Of a DNA stretch of 64,000 nucleotides, positions 8,719 through 14,416 are shown one piece after another. The notes below the pieces were generated by a model. That model saw nothing but the letters and a program-made list of their open reading frames with translations. It had not been told where the DNA came from and did not search any database. The stretch lies in NCBI GenBank assembly GCA_964608765.1, contig CAZSPD010000001.1, positions 147,223-211,222 on the forward strand, given 5' to 3'. The translations under genes and the position numbers were made by a program. Positions within the stretch are counted from its first letter, which is position 1; each line of letters starts with the position of its first letter. The DNA is from Candidatus Woesearchaeota archaeon (GTDB taxonomy: Archaea; Nanobdellota; Nanobdellia; Pacearchaeales; GW2011-AR1).

Positions 8719-10199
8719 TACACTAACCTCTTTTCTATTTCTCTTTTTAATTCATCTGCAAAAAATGGTCTTCCATCATACCTTAATATTTTATTTTTAG
8801 GATTAATGAACATTCCTGTATGTTGAGTTATAATTCCTGCTAATTGTCCTGTTGGAGAATTTTCTACAAGGAGTATATTTTTCCTTAGCAGATTATCTCG
8901 TATATTTTCTGGGAAAGGCTCAAGGTATTTAATGTGAATAAACTCTACATCTAGTCCCTTAATTGCATCAAGTATTGCCCCTTTATTAGAACCCCAACTC
9001 ACAACAATATTCTTAGAATTTGGTTCTCCATAAATAAAAAACCTAGAAAATCTTTTTAGTTCTTCTTTTAATTGCTGATGTTTCTTCAACCTTTTATCTA
9101 TATTCTCTTTTATTATTTGAGCATCTTCTGTTGCACTTCCAAAACTATCTTTTTCATAACTATTATATCTTGTAAAAGGAGTAGTATTTTTTATTTTAAT
9201 TATAGAGGATTCTTCATCTAATGTGTAATTACTTTCTGCAAGGTGTTTATCTCCTAAAACTATTGAAGGTATTTTAAATTTCTGAGATAAATAAAATGCT
9301 TCATTTGTCATTTCTTGAGCTTCTTTTGGGTCTCCTGGAGCTGCAACTGTTCTTGAGAATTGTCCGTGTCCAAAATGTATTGCCATATTCAAATCTCCTT
9401 GTGAAGTATAGGTTGCTACCCCTGTTCCTGGACCAGGTCTTTGAGATAAATATACTACAATCGGTATTTCTGCTATACCTGCTAAACTTAGAGACTCAGT
9501 CATTAAATCAAATCCCCCTCCTGAAGTCCCAACCATAACATTTTTTCCCATTATTGAACTACCTAAACCTGCATTAATTACAGCAATTTCATTTTCTAGT
9601 TTTACTGTCTTAACACCTTTAATAGGGGCTAATTCACTAAGTATAGGAGTTGCAGGAGTCATAGGATATGCATAATAAATATCTATATTTGAATTAAGTG
9701 CACCGTTTGTTATTCCAGTATTTCCATTGATAAGATAATTGCTTCTTTTATAATTTCGAATTTTACATAAGTTATTTGTTTCTTCACTATATCCTTTTTT
9801 TGCATTTGCAAGATTTTCACTGAATTTCTTACTCAATTTTTTAAGTCCTTCTTCAAGAAGTTTAAATTCTAAACATAAAAGTTTGAATATTCTTCCTGCA
9901 TAATACATATTCTCTTTAGAATTTTTAAGAATTATTCCCCCAGCATTTAAATTTTTTTTATGAATTTCTTCTGTTTTACTGTCTAAGCACACTAAAATAT
10001 CTATTTTTGAATCATTACTAAAAATAGGTTCATCTGAAAAAGTAAGAATATTAAAATTGTGTCCTCCTCTTATTAGGGATTGATAATCTCTAGAATAAAA
10101 AACATAATTTCCACTTTTTATAAGAGCATTTCCTACAATTTGAGTTAAAACATTTGGTCCTTGCCCTGCTTCACCTCCAATAAGTATATTATATCTCAT
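8718..10199 (-). CDS. 2-oxoacid:ferredoxin oxidoreductase, fused gamma/alpha subunit
   Basis: 493 aa. N-terminal gamma-like IGGEAGQGPNVLTQIVG. Alpha-like YPMTPATPILSELA and GTSGGGFDLMTESLSLAG. Confidence 0.85.
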   Translation of the reverse strand: MRYNILIGGEAGQGPNVLTQIVGNALIKSGNYVFYSRDYQSLIRGGHNFNILTFSDEPIFSNDSKIDILVCLDSKTEEIHKKNLNAGGIILKNSKENMYYAGRIFKLLCLEFKLLEEGLKKLSKKFSENLANAKKGYSEETNNLCKIRNYKRSNYLINGNTGITNGALNSNIDIYYAYPMTPATPILSELAPIKGVKTVKLENEIAVINAGLGSSIMGKNVMVGTSGGGFDLMTESLSLAGIAEIPIVVYLSQRPGPGTGVATYTSQGDLNMAIHFGHGQFSRTVAAPGDPKEAQEMTNEAFYLSQKFKIPSIVLGDKHLAESNYTLDEESSIIKIKNTTPFTRYNSYEKDSFGSATEDAQIIKENIDKRLKKHQQLKEELKRFSRFFIYGEPNSKNIVVSWGSNKGAILDAIKGLDVEFIHIKYLEPFPENIRDNLLRKNILLVENSPTGQLAGIITQHTGMFINPKNKILRYDGRPFFADELKREIEKRLV

Positions 10200-10301
10200 A
10201 TCACCCTCTTTAATGTAGTTAATTTTATATATTGGTATAGTTTTGAGCTGTTATAAACTTTTTTGTATAAAAATGATTAAAAATACTAAATTAATTTATT
10301 G

Positions 10302-10455
10302 TAAAATGGTAAGATTTGCACACTCGAGTAACCATGTTGACGAGGTAGTCGTTCAAATATTACAGGAGATAAAATGGTAAGATTTGCACACTCGAGTAAC
10401 CATGTTGACGAGGTAGTCGTTCAAATATTACAGGAGATAAAATGGTAAGATTTGC
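10302..10455 (+). repeat. Perfect 68-bp tandem duplication (2 full copies plus the genuine 5' end) of the mre11 start region
   Basis: Identical units at 10303-10370 and 10371-10438. The third copy matches for 17 nt (AAAATGGTAAGATTTGC) and then continues as mre11. ATGs lie at 10306, 10374 and 10442 (period 68). Confidence 0.95.
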
Positions 10456-11611
10456 CCACATAGCAGATGTACATCTTGGAGGATGGAAACAACAGCCAAT
10501 GCAGGATTTAAATTTTGAATCTTTTAAAGAAGCTGTAAATATTTGTATAAAGTCAAAATTGGATTTTATTTTATTTGCAGGAGATTTATTTGATTCAGCA
10601 TATCCCCCAATTGAAATACTTAAAGAAACATTTGCACAATTTAGAAGATTAAAAGATGCAGGAATACCTTGTTTTATAATTGCAGGTTCTCATGACTATT
10701 CTGTATCTGGAAAAACATTTTTAGATGTTCTTGAGAAAGCAGGATTTTGTAAAAATGTTTATAATGCAGAGGAAAAAGAAAACTCAATAATCCTTAATCC
10801 AATTGTTTATGGAAATGTTGCAATTTATGGATACCCTGGAAGAAAATCAGGTTTAGAAATAGCTGATTTAAAAAAAATAAGATTTAATGATTCTCCTGGA
10901 TTATACAAAATATTCATGTTACACACCACAATAGATAGAGTTGTTGGAACACTACCTATAGAATCAATAAATCCAGATAAACTACCTCATGCAGATTATT
11001 ATGCATTAGGACACATACACGTCTTTTATAGTGATAAGCGATTTGTTTATCCAGGACCATTATTTCCAAATAATTTTAAGGAACTTGAAGACTTAAAACA
11101 AGGATCTTTTGTAATCATAGATACAGAATCAAACTTTAATATTCAAAGAATAAAATTACCTACAAAACAAATAGAACATTTAGTGATTGAAATAAGTGAT
11201 GCACTAACAGGAACAGAGAAAATAATTTATGAGCTTAATCAAAGAGAACTTAAAGACAAAGTAATCCTGCTTAGGATATACGGGGAATTAAAAAGAGGAA
11301 AAACTTCTGATATAAAATTTTCTAAGATTGAAGAATTTATAAAAAGCAAGGAAGCATACTTTCTTTTAAGGAACACTCACGATTTAATCTCAGAGGAGAT
11401 AGAATTAGAATTTAATATTCCAGAGAAAGATTCTGAAAACATTGAAGAAGAGATAATCAAATCACATTCAGAAGAATATCCTTCTTCTTTTAATGATATA
11501 ATAAATGAATTAATGAATTCTCTTTCAATAGAGAAACAAGAAGGTGAGACAACAGAGACATTCAATAATAGGATTATTCAAGGAACTAAAAAATTCTTTA
11601 AATTACCTTAA
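10442..11611 (+). CDS. mre11: DNA double-strand break repair nuclease Mre11
   Basis: Phosphoesterase motifs FAHIADVHLG, GDLFD, AGSHD and GHIH. Followed by rad50. Confidence 0.9.
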   Translation: MVRFAHIADVHLGGWKQQPMQDLNFESFKEAVNICIKSKLDFILFAGDLFDSAYPPIEILKETFAQFRRLKDAGIPCFIIAGSHDYSVSGKTFLDVLEKAGFCKNVYNAEEKENSIILNPIVYGNVAIYGYPGRKSGLEIADLKKIRFNDSPGLYKIFMLHTTIDRVVGTLPIESINPDKLPHADYYALGHIHVFYSDKRFVYPGPLFPNNFKELEDLKQGSFVIIDTESNFNIQRIKLPTKQIEHLVIEISDALTGTEKIIYELNQRELKDKVILLRIYGELKRGKTSDIKFSKIEEFIKSKEAYFLLRNTHDLISEEIELEFNIPEKDSENIEEEIIKSHSEEYPSSFNDIINELMNSLSIEKQEGETTETFNNRIIQGTKKFFKLP

Positions 11612-11619
11612 TAAATAAA

Positions 11620-13668
11620 ATGAAGTTAAAGAGAATAATTTTAAATAATATACGAAGCTATGAAAAACAAGAGATAGTTTTTCCAGAAGGTTCAGTACTT
11701 CTTTCAGGAGATATTGGCTCAGGTAAGACCTCAGTTCTTTTAGGAATAGAATTTGCTTTATTTGGATTACAGCCTGGACAAAAAGGAACTTCAATTTTAA
11801 GGAATGGACAAGTCCAAGGGGGAGTTGAAATAGAATTTGAAATTGATGGAAAGATAATAATTCTTGAAAGAACTTTAAAAAAAACACGGGCAGTTGGACA
11901 AGATTATTGTTCAATTTCAATAGACGGAGAAAAAAAAGAAATATCTGTGACTGAATTAAAAAGCAAGGTTTTAGAACTTCTAAACTACCCTAAAGAATTT
12001 TCAAAAAAGCAAAATCTTTTGTATAAATTTACAGTGTATACTCCTCAAGAAGAGATGAAACAAATTATACTTGAAAATTCAGAAACAAGAATAAATACTC
12101 TTAGACATGTTTTTGGTATTGACAAATATAAAAAGATAATTGAAAATGCATCTGTTTTAATTTCCAAGGTAAGGGAAGAAAAAAAGATAAAAGATGCACT
12201 CTCCTCTAATCTTGAAAGCGACAAACTAAATATTGAATCTAAAGAAAAAGAACTTTCTGAAAAATCTTATAATCTAATTTCATTTGAAACTAAATTTAGA
12301 GACAAATCTGAAAAAAGAAAAAAGATTCAAGAAGAAAAAGAAGACATATTAAAAAAAATTGAAGAAAAAAGAAAATATCAGCAAGAAATAGAAAAAGTCC
12401 ACATTGCAAAAAATGTTAAAATTGACACAATCCACAACAATTCCCTATCAATCACACATCTTAAATCCCAAATCCAAGAATTAAAAAGCCTAGATTATAA
12501 TGAAAAAGAAGTTTTGGAATTAGAAAAAGAAGTTAGTGATTTAAAATCCAAGAAACACGAATTAAATGAAAAAAACATTAATATAACAGGCTTGATTCAT
12601 GCACTCAACTCTAAAAACTATGATAGTGAAAAGATTAAAGAAAAACTAAAGAACTTAGAAATATGCCCAACTTGCCTTCAAGAAGTTGATTCAGTATACA
12701 AATCAAATGTAGTTAATGAAATGGATTCTAATATTTCCTCTAATAATAATTTAATTAAAGATAATACTGAAAAAAAAGAAGCACTAAGAAACCAAATATT
12801 AAAAATTGATTATGATATTTCATTAAAAGAAAAAAGAATACAAGAAATAAGGATTTTGAAAGTAAAATTACTAGGATTAGAAGATAAACAAAGACAATTA
12901 GAAAACTTAGAAAAAACTAATACTTCTTTAGAAAAGGATTTAGAAATTTTTGACAATCAAATAGAATCCCTAAAACTAAAAGTGTTTGAACTTAATAAAT
13001 TTGATAATTTAAATCAAGAAAAGAATAAGGAACTTGAAGAAGCATTAAGAGAAGAAAAAAATGCAGAAATAAGAGTTGCAGAATTAAAAAGAGAAATAGA
13101 GGTTTTTTCAAGACAAATAAATGAACTGAAAGAGAGGGTTAAAGAGATAGAAGCAATAAAAACTCAAGCACACTATCTTTCTGATTTAGAAGAGTGGCTA
13201 TCAAAAAAATTCATTCCAATAGTTTCTACTGTTGAAAAAAATGTTTTCACTAAACTAAAAATAGAGTTTTCAAAACTTTTCTCTAAATGGTTTTCAATGC
13301 TTGTTTCAGATACATTCAATGTAAGATTAAGTGATGATTTTACTCCAATAGTTGAGCAGCAAGATTATGAAATAGATTATGCTTATCTCTCAGGAGGAGA
13401 AAGAACAGCTATTGCCCTTGCTTATAGACTCGCATTAAATCAAGTAATAAACTCTTTTTTAAGTAAAATAAAAACAAAAGACATAGTTATTTTAGATGAA
13501 CCTACAGACGGATTTTCAGATCAGCAATTAGATAAGATGAGAGAGGTTTTAGAAGAATTAAATGTTTCCCAATTAATCATTGTAAGTCACGAACAAAAAA
13601 TTGAAAGTTTTGTTGATAATGTTATAAAATTCAAAAAAGAAGGGGGAAAGAGTGTTGCTTTTGACTAG
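11620..13668 (+). CDS. rad50: DNA repair ATPase Rad50 (short coiled coil)
   Basis: Walker A GDIGSGKTS, zinc hook CPTC mid-protein, signature LSGGERTAIALA, Walker B IVILDEPT. Long K/E-rich coiled coil. Confidence 0.9.
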   Translation: MKLKRIILNNIRSYEKQEIVFPEGSVLLSGDIGSGKTSVLLGIEFALFGLQPGQKGTSILRNGQVQGGVEIEFEIDGKIIILERTLKKTRAVGQDYCSISIDGEKKEISVTELKSKVLELLNYPKEFSKKQNLLYKFTVYTPQEEMKQIILENSETRINTLRHVFGIDKYKKIIENASVLISKVREEKKIKDALSSNLESDKLNIESKEKELSEKSYNLISFETKFRDKSEKRKKIQEEKEDILKKIEEKRKYQQEIEKVHIAKNVKIDTIHNNSLSITHLKSQIQELKSLDYNEKEVLELEKEVSDLKSKKHELNEKNINITGLIHALNSKNYDSEKIKEKLKNLEICPTCLQEVDSVYKSNVVNEMDSNISSNNNLIKDNTEKKEALRNQILKIDYDISLKEKRIQEIRILKVKLLGLEDKQRQLENLEKTNTSLEKDLEIFDNQIESLKLKVFELNKFDNLNQEKNKELEEALREEKNAEIRVAELKREIEVFSRQINELKERVKEIEAIKTQAHYLSDLEEWLSKKFIPIVSTVEKNVFTKLKIEFSKLFSKWFSMLVSDTFNVRLSDDFTPIVEQQDYEIDYAYLSGGERTAIALAYRLALNQVINSFLSKIKTKDIVILDEPTDGFSDQQLDKMREVLEELNVSQLIIVSHEQKIESFVDNVIKFKKEGGKSVAFD

Positions 13669-13750: not shown

Positions 13751-14416
13751 ATGGACGAAGAATTAAAAAAGTCAATATTAAGGACCGGAACAACTATACT
13801 GGGGATTGTTTGTAAAGAAGGAATTGTTATGGCTTCTGATAGACAATCAAGTGCAGGGACAATTGTCATGAATAAGAATTCAGAAAAAACAAAAAAGATT
13901 AATGATTATATTCTTATTTCTGGAACAGGAATGGTATCAGACATTCAAAGAGTTGCAAAACTATTGCCTGCAGAATTAAAACTAAAAGAATTGCGTTCAA
14001 AATCAAGACCTAGTGTGAAACAAGCAGCAAGTTTACTTTCAAATATATCTTATTCAGGTATAAGGCAACCTTCAATGATTCCTCAACAAGCAGGATTTTT
14101 AATTGGAGGATTTGATGAAGATGGAACAGTTGAACTTTACACTGTTGAACCTGCTGGGAGTTTTGTAAAAGTAGATGACTATGATGCTAACTTTGGCTCA
14201 GGAATGCCCTATGTTTTAGGGTTTTTAGAGAGACAATACAAAAAAGATATGTCTATTAAAGATGGAATTGAATTAGCAAAAGAAGCAATTAAGTCCTCAA
14301 CTCAAAGAGATATGGGTTCAGGATATGGAATCGATGTGTTCACAATAACAAAAGAGGGTATTAAAAAAGTAGTTGAACAACAGATTCTTCCAGAATATGT
14401 GAATGAAACAAAATAA
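13751..14416 (+). CDS. psmB: 20S proteasome beta subunit
   Basis: 221 aa. Short propeptide followed by the GTTILGIV active-site Thr region. Confidence 0.9.
   Translation: MDEELKKSILRTGTTILGIVCKEGIVMASDRQSSAGTIVMNKNSEKTKKINDYILISGTGMVSDIQRVAKLLPAELKLKELRSKSRPSVKQAASLLSNISYSGIRQPSMIPQQAGFLIGGFDEDGTVELYTVEPAGSFVKVDDYDANFGSGMPYVLGFLERQYKKDMSIKDGIELAKEAIKSSTQRDMGSGYGIDVFTITKEGIKKVVEQQILPEYVNETK

Follow-up and report, generated by a model that had tools for sequence, protein, structure and literature searches.

The window analyzed here is a 64,000-nt stretch of the genome of a tiny, symbiotic Candidatus Woesearchaeota archaeon (contig CAZSPD010000001.1), and the element in question is a tandem array of 68-nt units at the start of mre11, upstream of the mre11–rad50 gene pair. 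The source metagenome-assembled genome (MAG) comprises 808 kb in 23 contigs, is 82% complete, and has 30% G+C; records related to it are labelled as Woesearchaeota, Pacearchaeota, or Nanoarchaeota MAGs, i.e., DPANN (Diapherotrites, Parvarchaeota, Aenigmarchaeota, Nanoarchaeota, and Nanohaloarchaeota) archaea. The mre11 gene (10442–11611, plus strand) encodes 389 aa with the Pfam domain Metallophos (E-value 2.9e-14) and has orthologues in 40 of 41 relatives; rad50 (11620–13668, plus strand; 682 aa; Pfam SMC_N, SbcC_Walker_B, and AAA_23) begins 8 nt 3' of it and is presumably carried on one transcript with mre11.

Tandem Repeats Finder reports a single array at 10302–10459 with period 68, 2.3 copies, 98% matches, and a score of 309. 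The two 68-nt units, 10303–10370 and 10371–10438, both on the plus strand, show no difference from each other; the partial third copy, 10439–10459, is the true mre11 start, with one mismatch (10456, GCC vs. GCA) and divergence past 10459. Each unit thus opens with the first 17–21 nt of mre11, AAAATGGTAAGATTTGC(A)CAC with the one mismatch, and continues with a spacer of about 50 nt ending in GGAGATAAA. This spacer (52 nt) occurs exactly twice in the window, with zero occurrences expected from 100 shuffles, and its G+C content is 0.38 vs. 0.30 genome-wide. An SD-like (Shine–Dalgarno-like) GGAG lies at 10433–10436 on the plus strand, 5 nt before the mre11 ATG, and has its twin at 10365–10368. Each copy also encodes a short upstream open reading frame (uORF): uORF1 (10306–10380) and uORF2 (10374–10448), both on the plus strand, have the same 24 codons, MVRFAHSSNHVDEVVVQILQEIKW*. 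The TGG-TAA end of each overlaps the following ATG (AAATGGTAA), the stop of uORF1 that of uORF2, and the stop of uORF2 (TAA at 10446–10448) the mre11 ATG at 10442; at both junctions the stop/start overlap is 7 nt (AUGGUAA). The initial annotation of this locus had described the perfect 68-bp duplication, a third copy continuing into mre11, the two 24-codon uORFs with ends overlapping the next ATG, and a GC-richer spacer with an SD-like end, and all of these held up, including the uORF coordinates.

Since the two units are fully identical and 68-nt tandem repeats are hard to count with short reads, the second copy might be an assembly artefact of a fragmented and incomplete MAG, the true state being one unit or another number. 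Against this, the unit-to-unit junction (spacer end + GCACAC + TCGAG) is present in the contig and would not exist in a one-copy allele; hence, at least two copies are likely, provided that the assembler added no sequence of its own. Multi-copy arrays marked by single-nucleotide polymorphisms are also found in independent assemblies of a sister lineage and of other lineages. We regard an artefact as rather improbable, and it would affect the copy number only, not the existence or nature of the element.

The promoter context was assessed with a matrix built from promoters of the same genome (consensus at −36 to −19: AAAAAGGTTTATAAACAC), and the mre11 leader was scanned at 10190–10445 on the plus strand. 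Genome-wide, TATA-like 8-mers begin at −29 in 49 and at −28 in 32 of 645 ORFs, against a background of 0–5 per position. Strong matrix matches imply a +1 at position 0 or −1 of the ATG in 128 of 245 cases, a result that is partly circular, as the matrix was trained at that offset; the 8-mer count is independent of the matrix. SD-like 4-mers are seen upstream of approximately 20% of ORFs, mostly starting at −16 to −9. The data indicate that the host is a largely leaderless archaeon, in which leaderless mRNAs are probably the norm; such mRNAs are known for many archaea (PMC6028130, PMC7531240). Separately, the MAG has no match to the conserved 16S rRNA 3' end of archaea, GATCACCTC, so that part of the rRNA operon is apparently missing from it.

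At mre11, a promoter-like BRE/TATA (transcription factor B recognition element and TATA box) sequence, AAAAATGATTAAAAATAC, lies at 10269–10286 on the plus strand, and its score of 9.1 exceeds the 99th percentile for the control offset. Its TATA-like part, TTAAAAAT at 10277–10284, is 29 nt before the first decoy ATG. Transcription would accordingly start at 10305/10306, leaving uORF1 leaderless. Inside the window repeats the scan yields no matrix match: the score at the canonical offset is −16.5 for both ATG 10374 and ATG 10442, vs. 9.1 before the first decoy. A promoter is therefore likely absent between the co-directional decoy ORFs and mre11. The matrix scan thus agrees with the earlier observation that TATA-like sequence precedes copy 1 only and not the real start, and, as far as the sequence tells, the repeats offer no promoter for transcription beginning 3' of them, the case in which the uORFs would be untranscribed. 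The string AAATATTA within the unit, in the anti-start described below, was considered as an internal promoter and rejected, as it sits at −19 to −12 and has no matrix match. No intrinsic terminator or attenuator was found.

The same promoter arrangement is seen in relatives. Where the unit is missing, the TTAAAAAT box is at −29/−30 of the mre11 ATG itself, and the best matrix match is at position 0 or −1 of that ATG in 18 of 47 loci; in G019 and G023, two genomes that carry a unit, the decoy ATG is just as far from the box. In four other lineages with a unit the implied +1 falls exactly on the first decoy ATG, and in the lineages with units of c-type it is 8 nt before it. A second TATA element, AGTTAATTTTATATATTG (10217–10234, no strand assigned), is conserved in the genus and has a plus-strand score of 9.0 with an implied +1 at 10253. 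It may serve the divergent oxidoreductase gene as a promoter or else be an alternative promoter of mre11; the minus-strand matrix score at the canonical offset of the oxidoreductase gene is only 4.0. Whichever of the two boxes is used, the decoys would be transcribed together with mre11. A start at 10253 rather than 10305 would give uORF1 11 extra N-terminal codons (MIKNTKLIYCK), with ATG 10273 in frame with the decoy ATG 10306; ATG 10273 is not conserved in relatives.

The unit is conserved beyond the window genome. Start-copying units are present at mre11 in 6 of the 24 species of the genus. A single 64–68-nt unit of the window's type is seen in G023, G004, and G005, with 51–55 of 68 nt identical to the window unit, while G006 has one copy and G019 three copies of a different, 44-nt unit. 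Four further genomes in three other genera of the family carry a unit (401 genomes sampled across the order). A metagenome scan retrieved 28 contigs, with every match at an mre11-type start (MV[KR]FAH, then I[AS]DVH or similar); the pattern required M-V-[KR]-F-[AG]-H, hence the exclusively synonymous variation of the decoys in this set partly reflects biased selection. When 70 species-level mre11 upstream regions were checked free of this bias (at most 4 mismatches in 18), decoys were found only in the same lineages and in one Pacearchaeota genome with MARFAH in decoy and gene alike. In total, there are 26 distinct units, 44–79 nt long, with a copy number of 0 to 3 across lineages. The comparison of mre11 upstream regions proposed in the initial annotation therefore reveals homologous units in genomes of the same genus, beyond a private duplication. 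This conservation, a helix with the next start, and a peptide and frame that are not conserved between unit types were all missing from the annotation.

Judged by shared motifs, the units are assigned to at least three sequence families. Family F1, which includes the window genome, is defined by CAC-YTGAG ... GAAGTAGTCGT-RAGAATTTTAC; family F2 has CAYGAC-hairpin-GGAG...AAA and units of 44–57 nt; family F3 has units of 60–62 nt. Rfam 15 gives no match for 10150–10560 on either strand at E ≤ 10.

The unit is specific to mre11. The window spacer has no further occurrence in the 808-kb genome, and the spacer core is not found away from mre11 in the 24 genus genomes; the module is thus gene-specific and not a dispersed repeat. 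In the window genome, no gene but mre11 has its first 15 nt repeated in the 120 nt upstream of it, and among 348 ORFs of related loci the only other match is a low-complexity A/T string. Several origins were rejected: a general habit of start duplication, as mre11 is the only gene showing one; a dispersed mobile element, as the spacer is found at mre11 only, both in the genome and in the genus; and an element derived from an insertion sequence or a miniature inverted-repeat transposable element, as there is a single locus, the unit lacks terminal inverted repeats, and the direct repeat is 17–21 nt of the gene itself. A birth of the spacer from the 5' coding sequence of mre11 by duplication and decay was rejected as well: the 26 spacers align to their own coding sequences no better than shuffles do, and the best alignment (TTAGGAGGA, one 44-nt unit; p = 0.018) is not significant after 26 tests. 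A match of GACGTG(A)AT in c-type units to codons 9–11 is anecdotal.

Within the F1 units, two RNA elements can be recognized. RNAalifold predicts a hairpin, P1 (ACUC..UAAC-CAU-GUUG..AGGU), from five a-type units (columns 17–41); it lies inside the uORF at 10322–10346 and is repeated at 10390–10414 (plus strand), and is weaker in the window than in relatives. Further downstream, the SD-like motif is preceded by 13 nt that form the reverse complement of codons 2–6 of the following start, hereafter the anti-start. In unit 1, the anti-start GUUCAAAUAUUAC (10351–10363, plus strand) can pair at 11 of 13 positions with codons 2–6 of the second decoy, and in unit 2 (10419–10431, plus strand) 10 of 13 positions are complementary to codons 2–6 of the real mre11 start. 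Both anti-starts lie within uORFs, the former in uORF1 and the latter in uORF2, and the loop of the anti-start hairpin in F1 (10–16 nt) contains the SD-like motif and the AUG.

The anti-start helix shows covariation. In alignment A2 (13 sequences), 85% of cells are paired, vs. 13–54% with a slid partner, and both sides have changed in three pairs (10 cells). None of 500 shuffles reaches the observed paired share, the number of cells changed on both sides, or the covariation score, and 10 of 500 reach three such pairs, although these statistics overstate significance, as the related sequences are not independent. Column pair 12–45 is A-U in seven and G-C in six sequences, in step with the Phe codon (TTT/TTC). 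Every anti-start of the heterogeneous array L034 fits its own downstream partner, the rule for columns 12–45 holding inside the array; G023 and G004 differ in the pair formed by the third base of the Ala codon, with C-G in place of U-A. The anti-start hairpins of relatives have predicted energies of −10.4 to −12.8 kcal/mol (z −2.1 to −4.3). In other unit types the structure differs: c-type units of F2 have, right after the decoy, a 7-bp hairpin in which five sequences show two compensatory pairs, with changes that are non-synonymous in the uORF, and the 44-nt family shows only a weak 8-bp pairing with codons 7–9 and one compensatory pair. The start region itself, GGUAAGAUUUGCC (10309–10321; mre11 start 10445–10457), is a quasi-palindrome in which positions 1–6 pair with 13–8 if G-U is allowed, so that decoy and real start can also pair directly with each other; RNAalifold predicts such a pairing for c-type units.

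Symmetric changes in the two arms would also preserve a palindromic binding site, and the direct repeats and the inverted repeat that surrounds the mre11 ATG might jointly be a DNA-level operator bound by a transcription factor with no RNA structure involved; by the counts of G-U (4) and A-C (6) cells, an RNA helix and a DNA inverted repeat cannot be told apart. However, the arms lie downstream of the probable transcription start, the SD-like motif and AUG occupy the loop, the uORF ends are tuned to the next ATG, and neither the arm spacing of 10–16 nt nor the unit lengths of 44–79 nt keep a helical phasing. An operator is accordingly very improbable.

A further feature is where the decoy ORFs end. 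The decoy ORFs have 13–25 codons, and in 23 of the 26 distinct units they end within 9 nt of the next ATG, vs. 9.8 expected from shuffled spacers; as the units are mutually related, the nominal P value of this enrichment is too small. The frame and the peptide are not preserved in the same way: unit lengths span all three classes modulo 3, the motif GTCGTRAGAATTTTAC, common to a- and e-type units, is read in different frames, and an indel shifts the frame between the closely similar units of L033 and L044, while the nucleotides are kept. Conservation is thus mainly of nucleotides, not of a peptide, and the differences in peptide and frame between unit types argue against a function of the peptide itself. 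Across unit types, neither a conserved codon content nor a conserved peptide was seen, with no test aimed at stalling signals made.

A functional micropeptide, or recognition of the nascent N-terminus MVRFAH, identical to that of Mre11, could still be considered, as in most units the reading frame stays open as far as the next ATG, substitutions are often conservative within the a-type and 79-nt types, two genera have ..DEVVVQI.. in common, and the differences between G112 and G243 are mostly R/K, Y/F, I/L, M/I, and N/D. In addition to the frame differences, which led us to reject the peptide as the main explanation, the compensatory changes in the c-type hairpin alter amino acids, and the synonymous-only variation of decoys is partly an artefact of the search pattern, the rest being explained by exchange with the gene start. 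We consider a role of the peptide highly unlikely.

Copy number varies between close relatives. Contigs with flanks 99.4–100% identical to G019 carry three, two, or one units, one two-unit contig (L059) matching G019 in 144 nt upstream only. The Ala-codon variants are GCT, GCT, GCA before gene GCG; GCA, GCA before GCG; and GCT before gene GCA, a pattern that shows exchange between decoy and gene start. Decoys differ at 1.6 positions on average from their own gene start and at 2.97 from those of other lineages, a contrast matched by 0 of 10,000 permutations, and in one genus codon 2 is Ala in the decoy as well as in the gene, yet the spacer of this genus is homologous to that of the Val-type genus. 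The initial annotation had offered a recent slippage or duplication event or a termination–reinitiation leader as two possibilities; both are partly right, and they are not alternatives. As the two window units are 100% identical, the second copy is apparently a recent expansion, and strain-level expansion and contraction are documented in the sister lineage; the unit itself, with homologous single-copy units of 64–79 nt before mre11 in other species and genera (within the genus, 53–57 of 68 nt agree with the window unit), is evidently an old, inherited leader. The termination–reinitiation leader is supported indirectly, by the promoter before copy 1 only, the enrichment of uORF ends, and the covarying clamp, i.e., the anti-start helix, in relatives.

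Two metagenomic arrays show further states. In L034 (Ga0326726_10112727, 2209–2419, reverse complement), two 71-nt units are followed by one 68-nt unit of the window type; all three decoys are identical, with three synonymous differences from the gene start. In L035/L048 (Ga0102934_1001401, Ga0102937_1005972), the array upstream of mre11 is decaying: the first, 70-nt unit has no ATG (ATAATAAAGATTTGCGCAC), and the second has an early TGA at codon 8 (MVRFAHT*), with the motifs CTTGAG and GAAGTAGTCGT still kept.

Taken together, we consider it moderately probable that the repeat in the window is a lineage-specific 5' leader module of the mre11–rad50 operon, present twice and acting as a copy-number-variable restart leader by termination–reinitiation and RNA unfolding. 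In each module, the decoy start (ATG and codons 2–6) is followed by the foldable, G+C-richer segment with P1, the 13-nt anti-start, and the SD-like GGAG, and then by the next start, i.e., a further decoy or the real mre11 ATG. Transcription would begin at or just before the first decoy AUG, in the position of the mre11 AUG of module-free relatives, and a ribosome would start there as on any leaderless mRNA of the host. While translating the 24-codon decoy ORF, it would pass through the anti-start and thereby open any helix between the anti-start and the following start; it would then terminate on the UAA inside AUGGUAA and restart at the overlapping AUG. With two units, two restarts would precede the synthesis of Mre11, so that production of Mre11 and Rad50 would be coupled to decoy translation and probably damped. 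The direct repeats formed by decoy and gene start may recombine or slip, yielding the 0–3-copy polymorphism and keeping decoy and gene start alike.

Several observations weigh against this restart leader. Absence of the module from 18 of the 24 genus species means that it is dispensable. In the window the clamp is weak: pairing of the first anti-start with the second decoy is predicted at −6.0 kcal/mol, the helix between the second anti-start and the real start is not in the predicted minimum-energy fold, and the fold of the whole window leader is no more stable than that of shuffles (z −0.23). Units of the 44-nt family do not clearly show the helix, and the undiscriminating G-U and A-C counts and the overstated shuffle statistics given above belong here as well. 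The TATA element at 10217–10234 would instead give a 53-nt leader. Finally, the overlap at mre11 is 7 nt (AUGGUAA), vs. 4 or 1 in tested coupled pairs, and three unit types end 15–46 nt ahead of the next ATG, distances at which coupling is nearly gone in Haloferax (PMC10666635).

Some of these points fit a tolerated scar of insertion or duplication with no regulatory role, left by a start-duplicating element, of the kind of mycobacterial interspersed repetitive units (MIRUs) or another one, that brought a spare start to the mre11 start. Such a scar would have survived only because the decoy ORF carries ribosomes across, with neutral drift of copy number and frequent loss. The patchy distribution, including the missing module in most of the genus, the decayed clamp of the window genome, and the lineage with an ATG-less first decoy and an early stop in the second favor it; MIRUs, as summarized in a review (PMC12548453), bring a coupled ORF with them when they insert at start codons, so that the host gene suffers less harm. 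On the Mre11 tree, unit types are restricted to clades and interleaved with module-free relatives, requiring 17 state changes, of which at least 13 are forced by well-supported branches; this fits frequent loss of the module by recombination between the direct repeats. On the other side, the spacer is not dispersed, being found at mre11 only in the genome and genus, while two helices with compensatory changes and the enrichment of uORF ends indicate continuing selection on parts of the module. A scar is a possible, though less than probable, explanation; it concerns adaptive value, the ribosome-restart mechanism being common to it and to the restart leader.

A different use of the same pairing partners is a three-element RNA switch, in which decoy start and real start compete for one anti-start. 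A free decoy would pair with the anti-start and leave the real start open; a decoy occupied by a ribosome or factor would let the anti-start flip onto the real start, and in an array the pairing register would shift along all units. Indeed, the anti-start is complementary to both partners, and the e-type (L058) and 79-nt type (L083) fold with the decoy paired to the anti-start, the real start being paired at a probability of only 0.39–0.45; in these two types, blocking the first 18 nt shifts the anti-start to the real start, and a switch is thermodynamically plausible there. A switch would also explain why the decoy must stay identical to the gene start. However, the a-type relatives (G023, G004, L034) keep the anti-start on the real start in every fold (probability of pairing 0.91), both pairings are weak in the window genome, the covariation test covered the downstream pairing, and no ligand or sensor is evident, nor does Rfam yield a match. 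We deem such a switch unlikely.

The restart leader can be compared with several known systems. Termination–reinitiation at overlapping stop and start codons couples translation in archaea and bacteria and has been demonstrated in the archaeon Haloferax (Huber et al., 2019, PMC6728339; Huber et al., 2023, PMC10666635). Similar to such pairs, the module has co-directional ORFs, one presumed transcript, a stop overlapping the next start, and an SD-like motif that is optional in both; unlike them, the upstream partner is no real gene but a decoy of 13–25 codons that repeats the first six codons of the gene behind it, the unit can be amplified in tandem, and coupling is here deduced from the sequence. 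In coupling by RNA unfolding, an initiation region closed by a hairpin is opened by the upstream ribosome, e.g., in MS2 coat/lysis and rpmI–rplT (reviewed in PMC12548453). The likeness lies in a helix that in relatives covers downstream codons 2–6, with one arm inside the upstream ORF, whose translation would therefore have to melt the helix; the differences are that the mre11 AUG and SD-like motif are in the loop and not in the stem, and that the helix is weak in the window genome and unclear in one unit family. At the mre11 module, neither a stalling signal nor a ligand or inducer is evident. Translational attenuation of ermC is a further example of such control by leader peptides.

Leaderless short ORFs of mycobacteria act as attenuators (bioRxiv 10.1101/834739; PMC4633059). 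They share with the module a leaderless transcript that opens with a short ORF before the real gene, control at mre11 being suggested by the sequence; however, they sense an amino acid via codon content (polycysteine), whereas the content of the mre11 decoy ORFs is not conserved, and the conserved parts are instead the start copy and the anti-start. MIRUs (Supply et al., 1997, via PMC12548453) are, in the account given there, the nearest described element, with units of tens of nucleotides at gene starts, a gene-coupled small ORF, tandem arrays, and strain-variable copy number. Yet in that account they are bacterial, dispersed over many loci, and without a copy of the first codons of the host gene, whereas the module is found only at mre11 and thus apparently fails their defining feature, dispersal. 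No description of the present start-copying layout was found in full-text literature searches. Hence, the module is, as we read it, a conserved, structured, copy-number-variable, start-copying leader of mre11–rad50, and would be a new variant of control by uORFs and translational coupling.

Next to nothing has been learned about post-transcriptional regulation in DPANN archaea, organisms that are difficult to grow or have not been cultured; in the present case, sequence comparison on its own leads to a testable cis-element before the main operon for double-strand-break repair. The module also suggests a route by which a leaderless gene may gain a 5' leader with expression kept, the original start remaining as a decoy and ribosomes being handed on by restart. 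The lineages with zero, one, two, and three units would form a natural series for measuring the efficiency of archaeal reinitiation. If the number of units tunes the dosage of Mre11–Rad50, this would be a repeat-based contingency switch on the very complex that processes repeats and hairpins. For annotation, it should be kept in mind that in module-bearing genomes the first ATG past the promoter is not the mre11 start.

We only tentatively go a step further and suggest that the module, as a "restart cassette," is a working, evolvable device of translational control of a kind not yet described. If so, a leaderless gene would have become an internal, clamp-closed cistron, opened only by a ribosome coming from the decoy copy of its start; as decoy, anti-start, and real start share sequence, an array would behave as a shift register, with occupancy of the 5' decoy setting the pairing register of every unit. 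The unit count would then be a fast-mutating dial (0–3) for the dosage of Mre11–Rad50, and the locus a contingency locus for DNA-repair capacity in ultra-small archaea.

Two observations were made apart from the mre11 locus. The gene rtcA (RNA 3'-phosphate cyclase, PF01137) is present in none of 37 sampled genomes of the window's family and in 9 of 24 genomes in the other families of the order; none of 9 rtcA genes from elsewhere in the order has a duplicated start. On contig C11 of the window genome (minus strand, approximately 13986–14200 in reverse-complement coordinates), an in-frame 18-nt tandem repeat, ATGCTAGTGTTTACG..., occurs in at least seven copies within an ORF, which thus contains a hexapeptide repeat.

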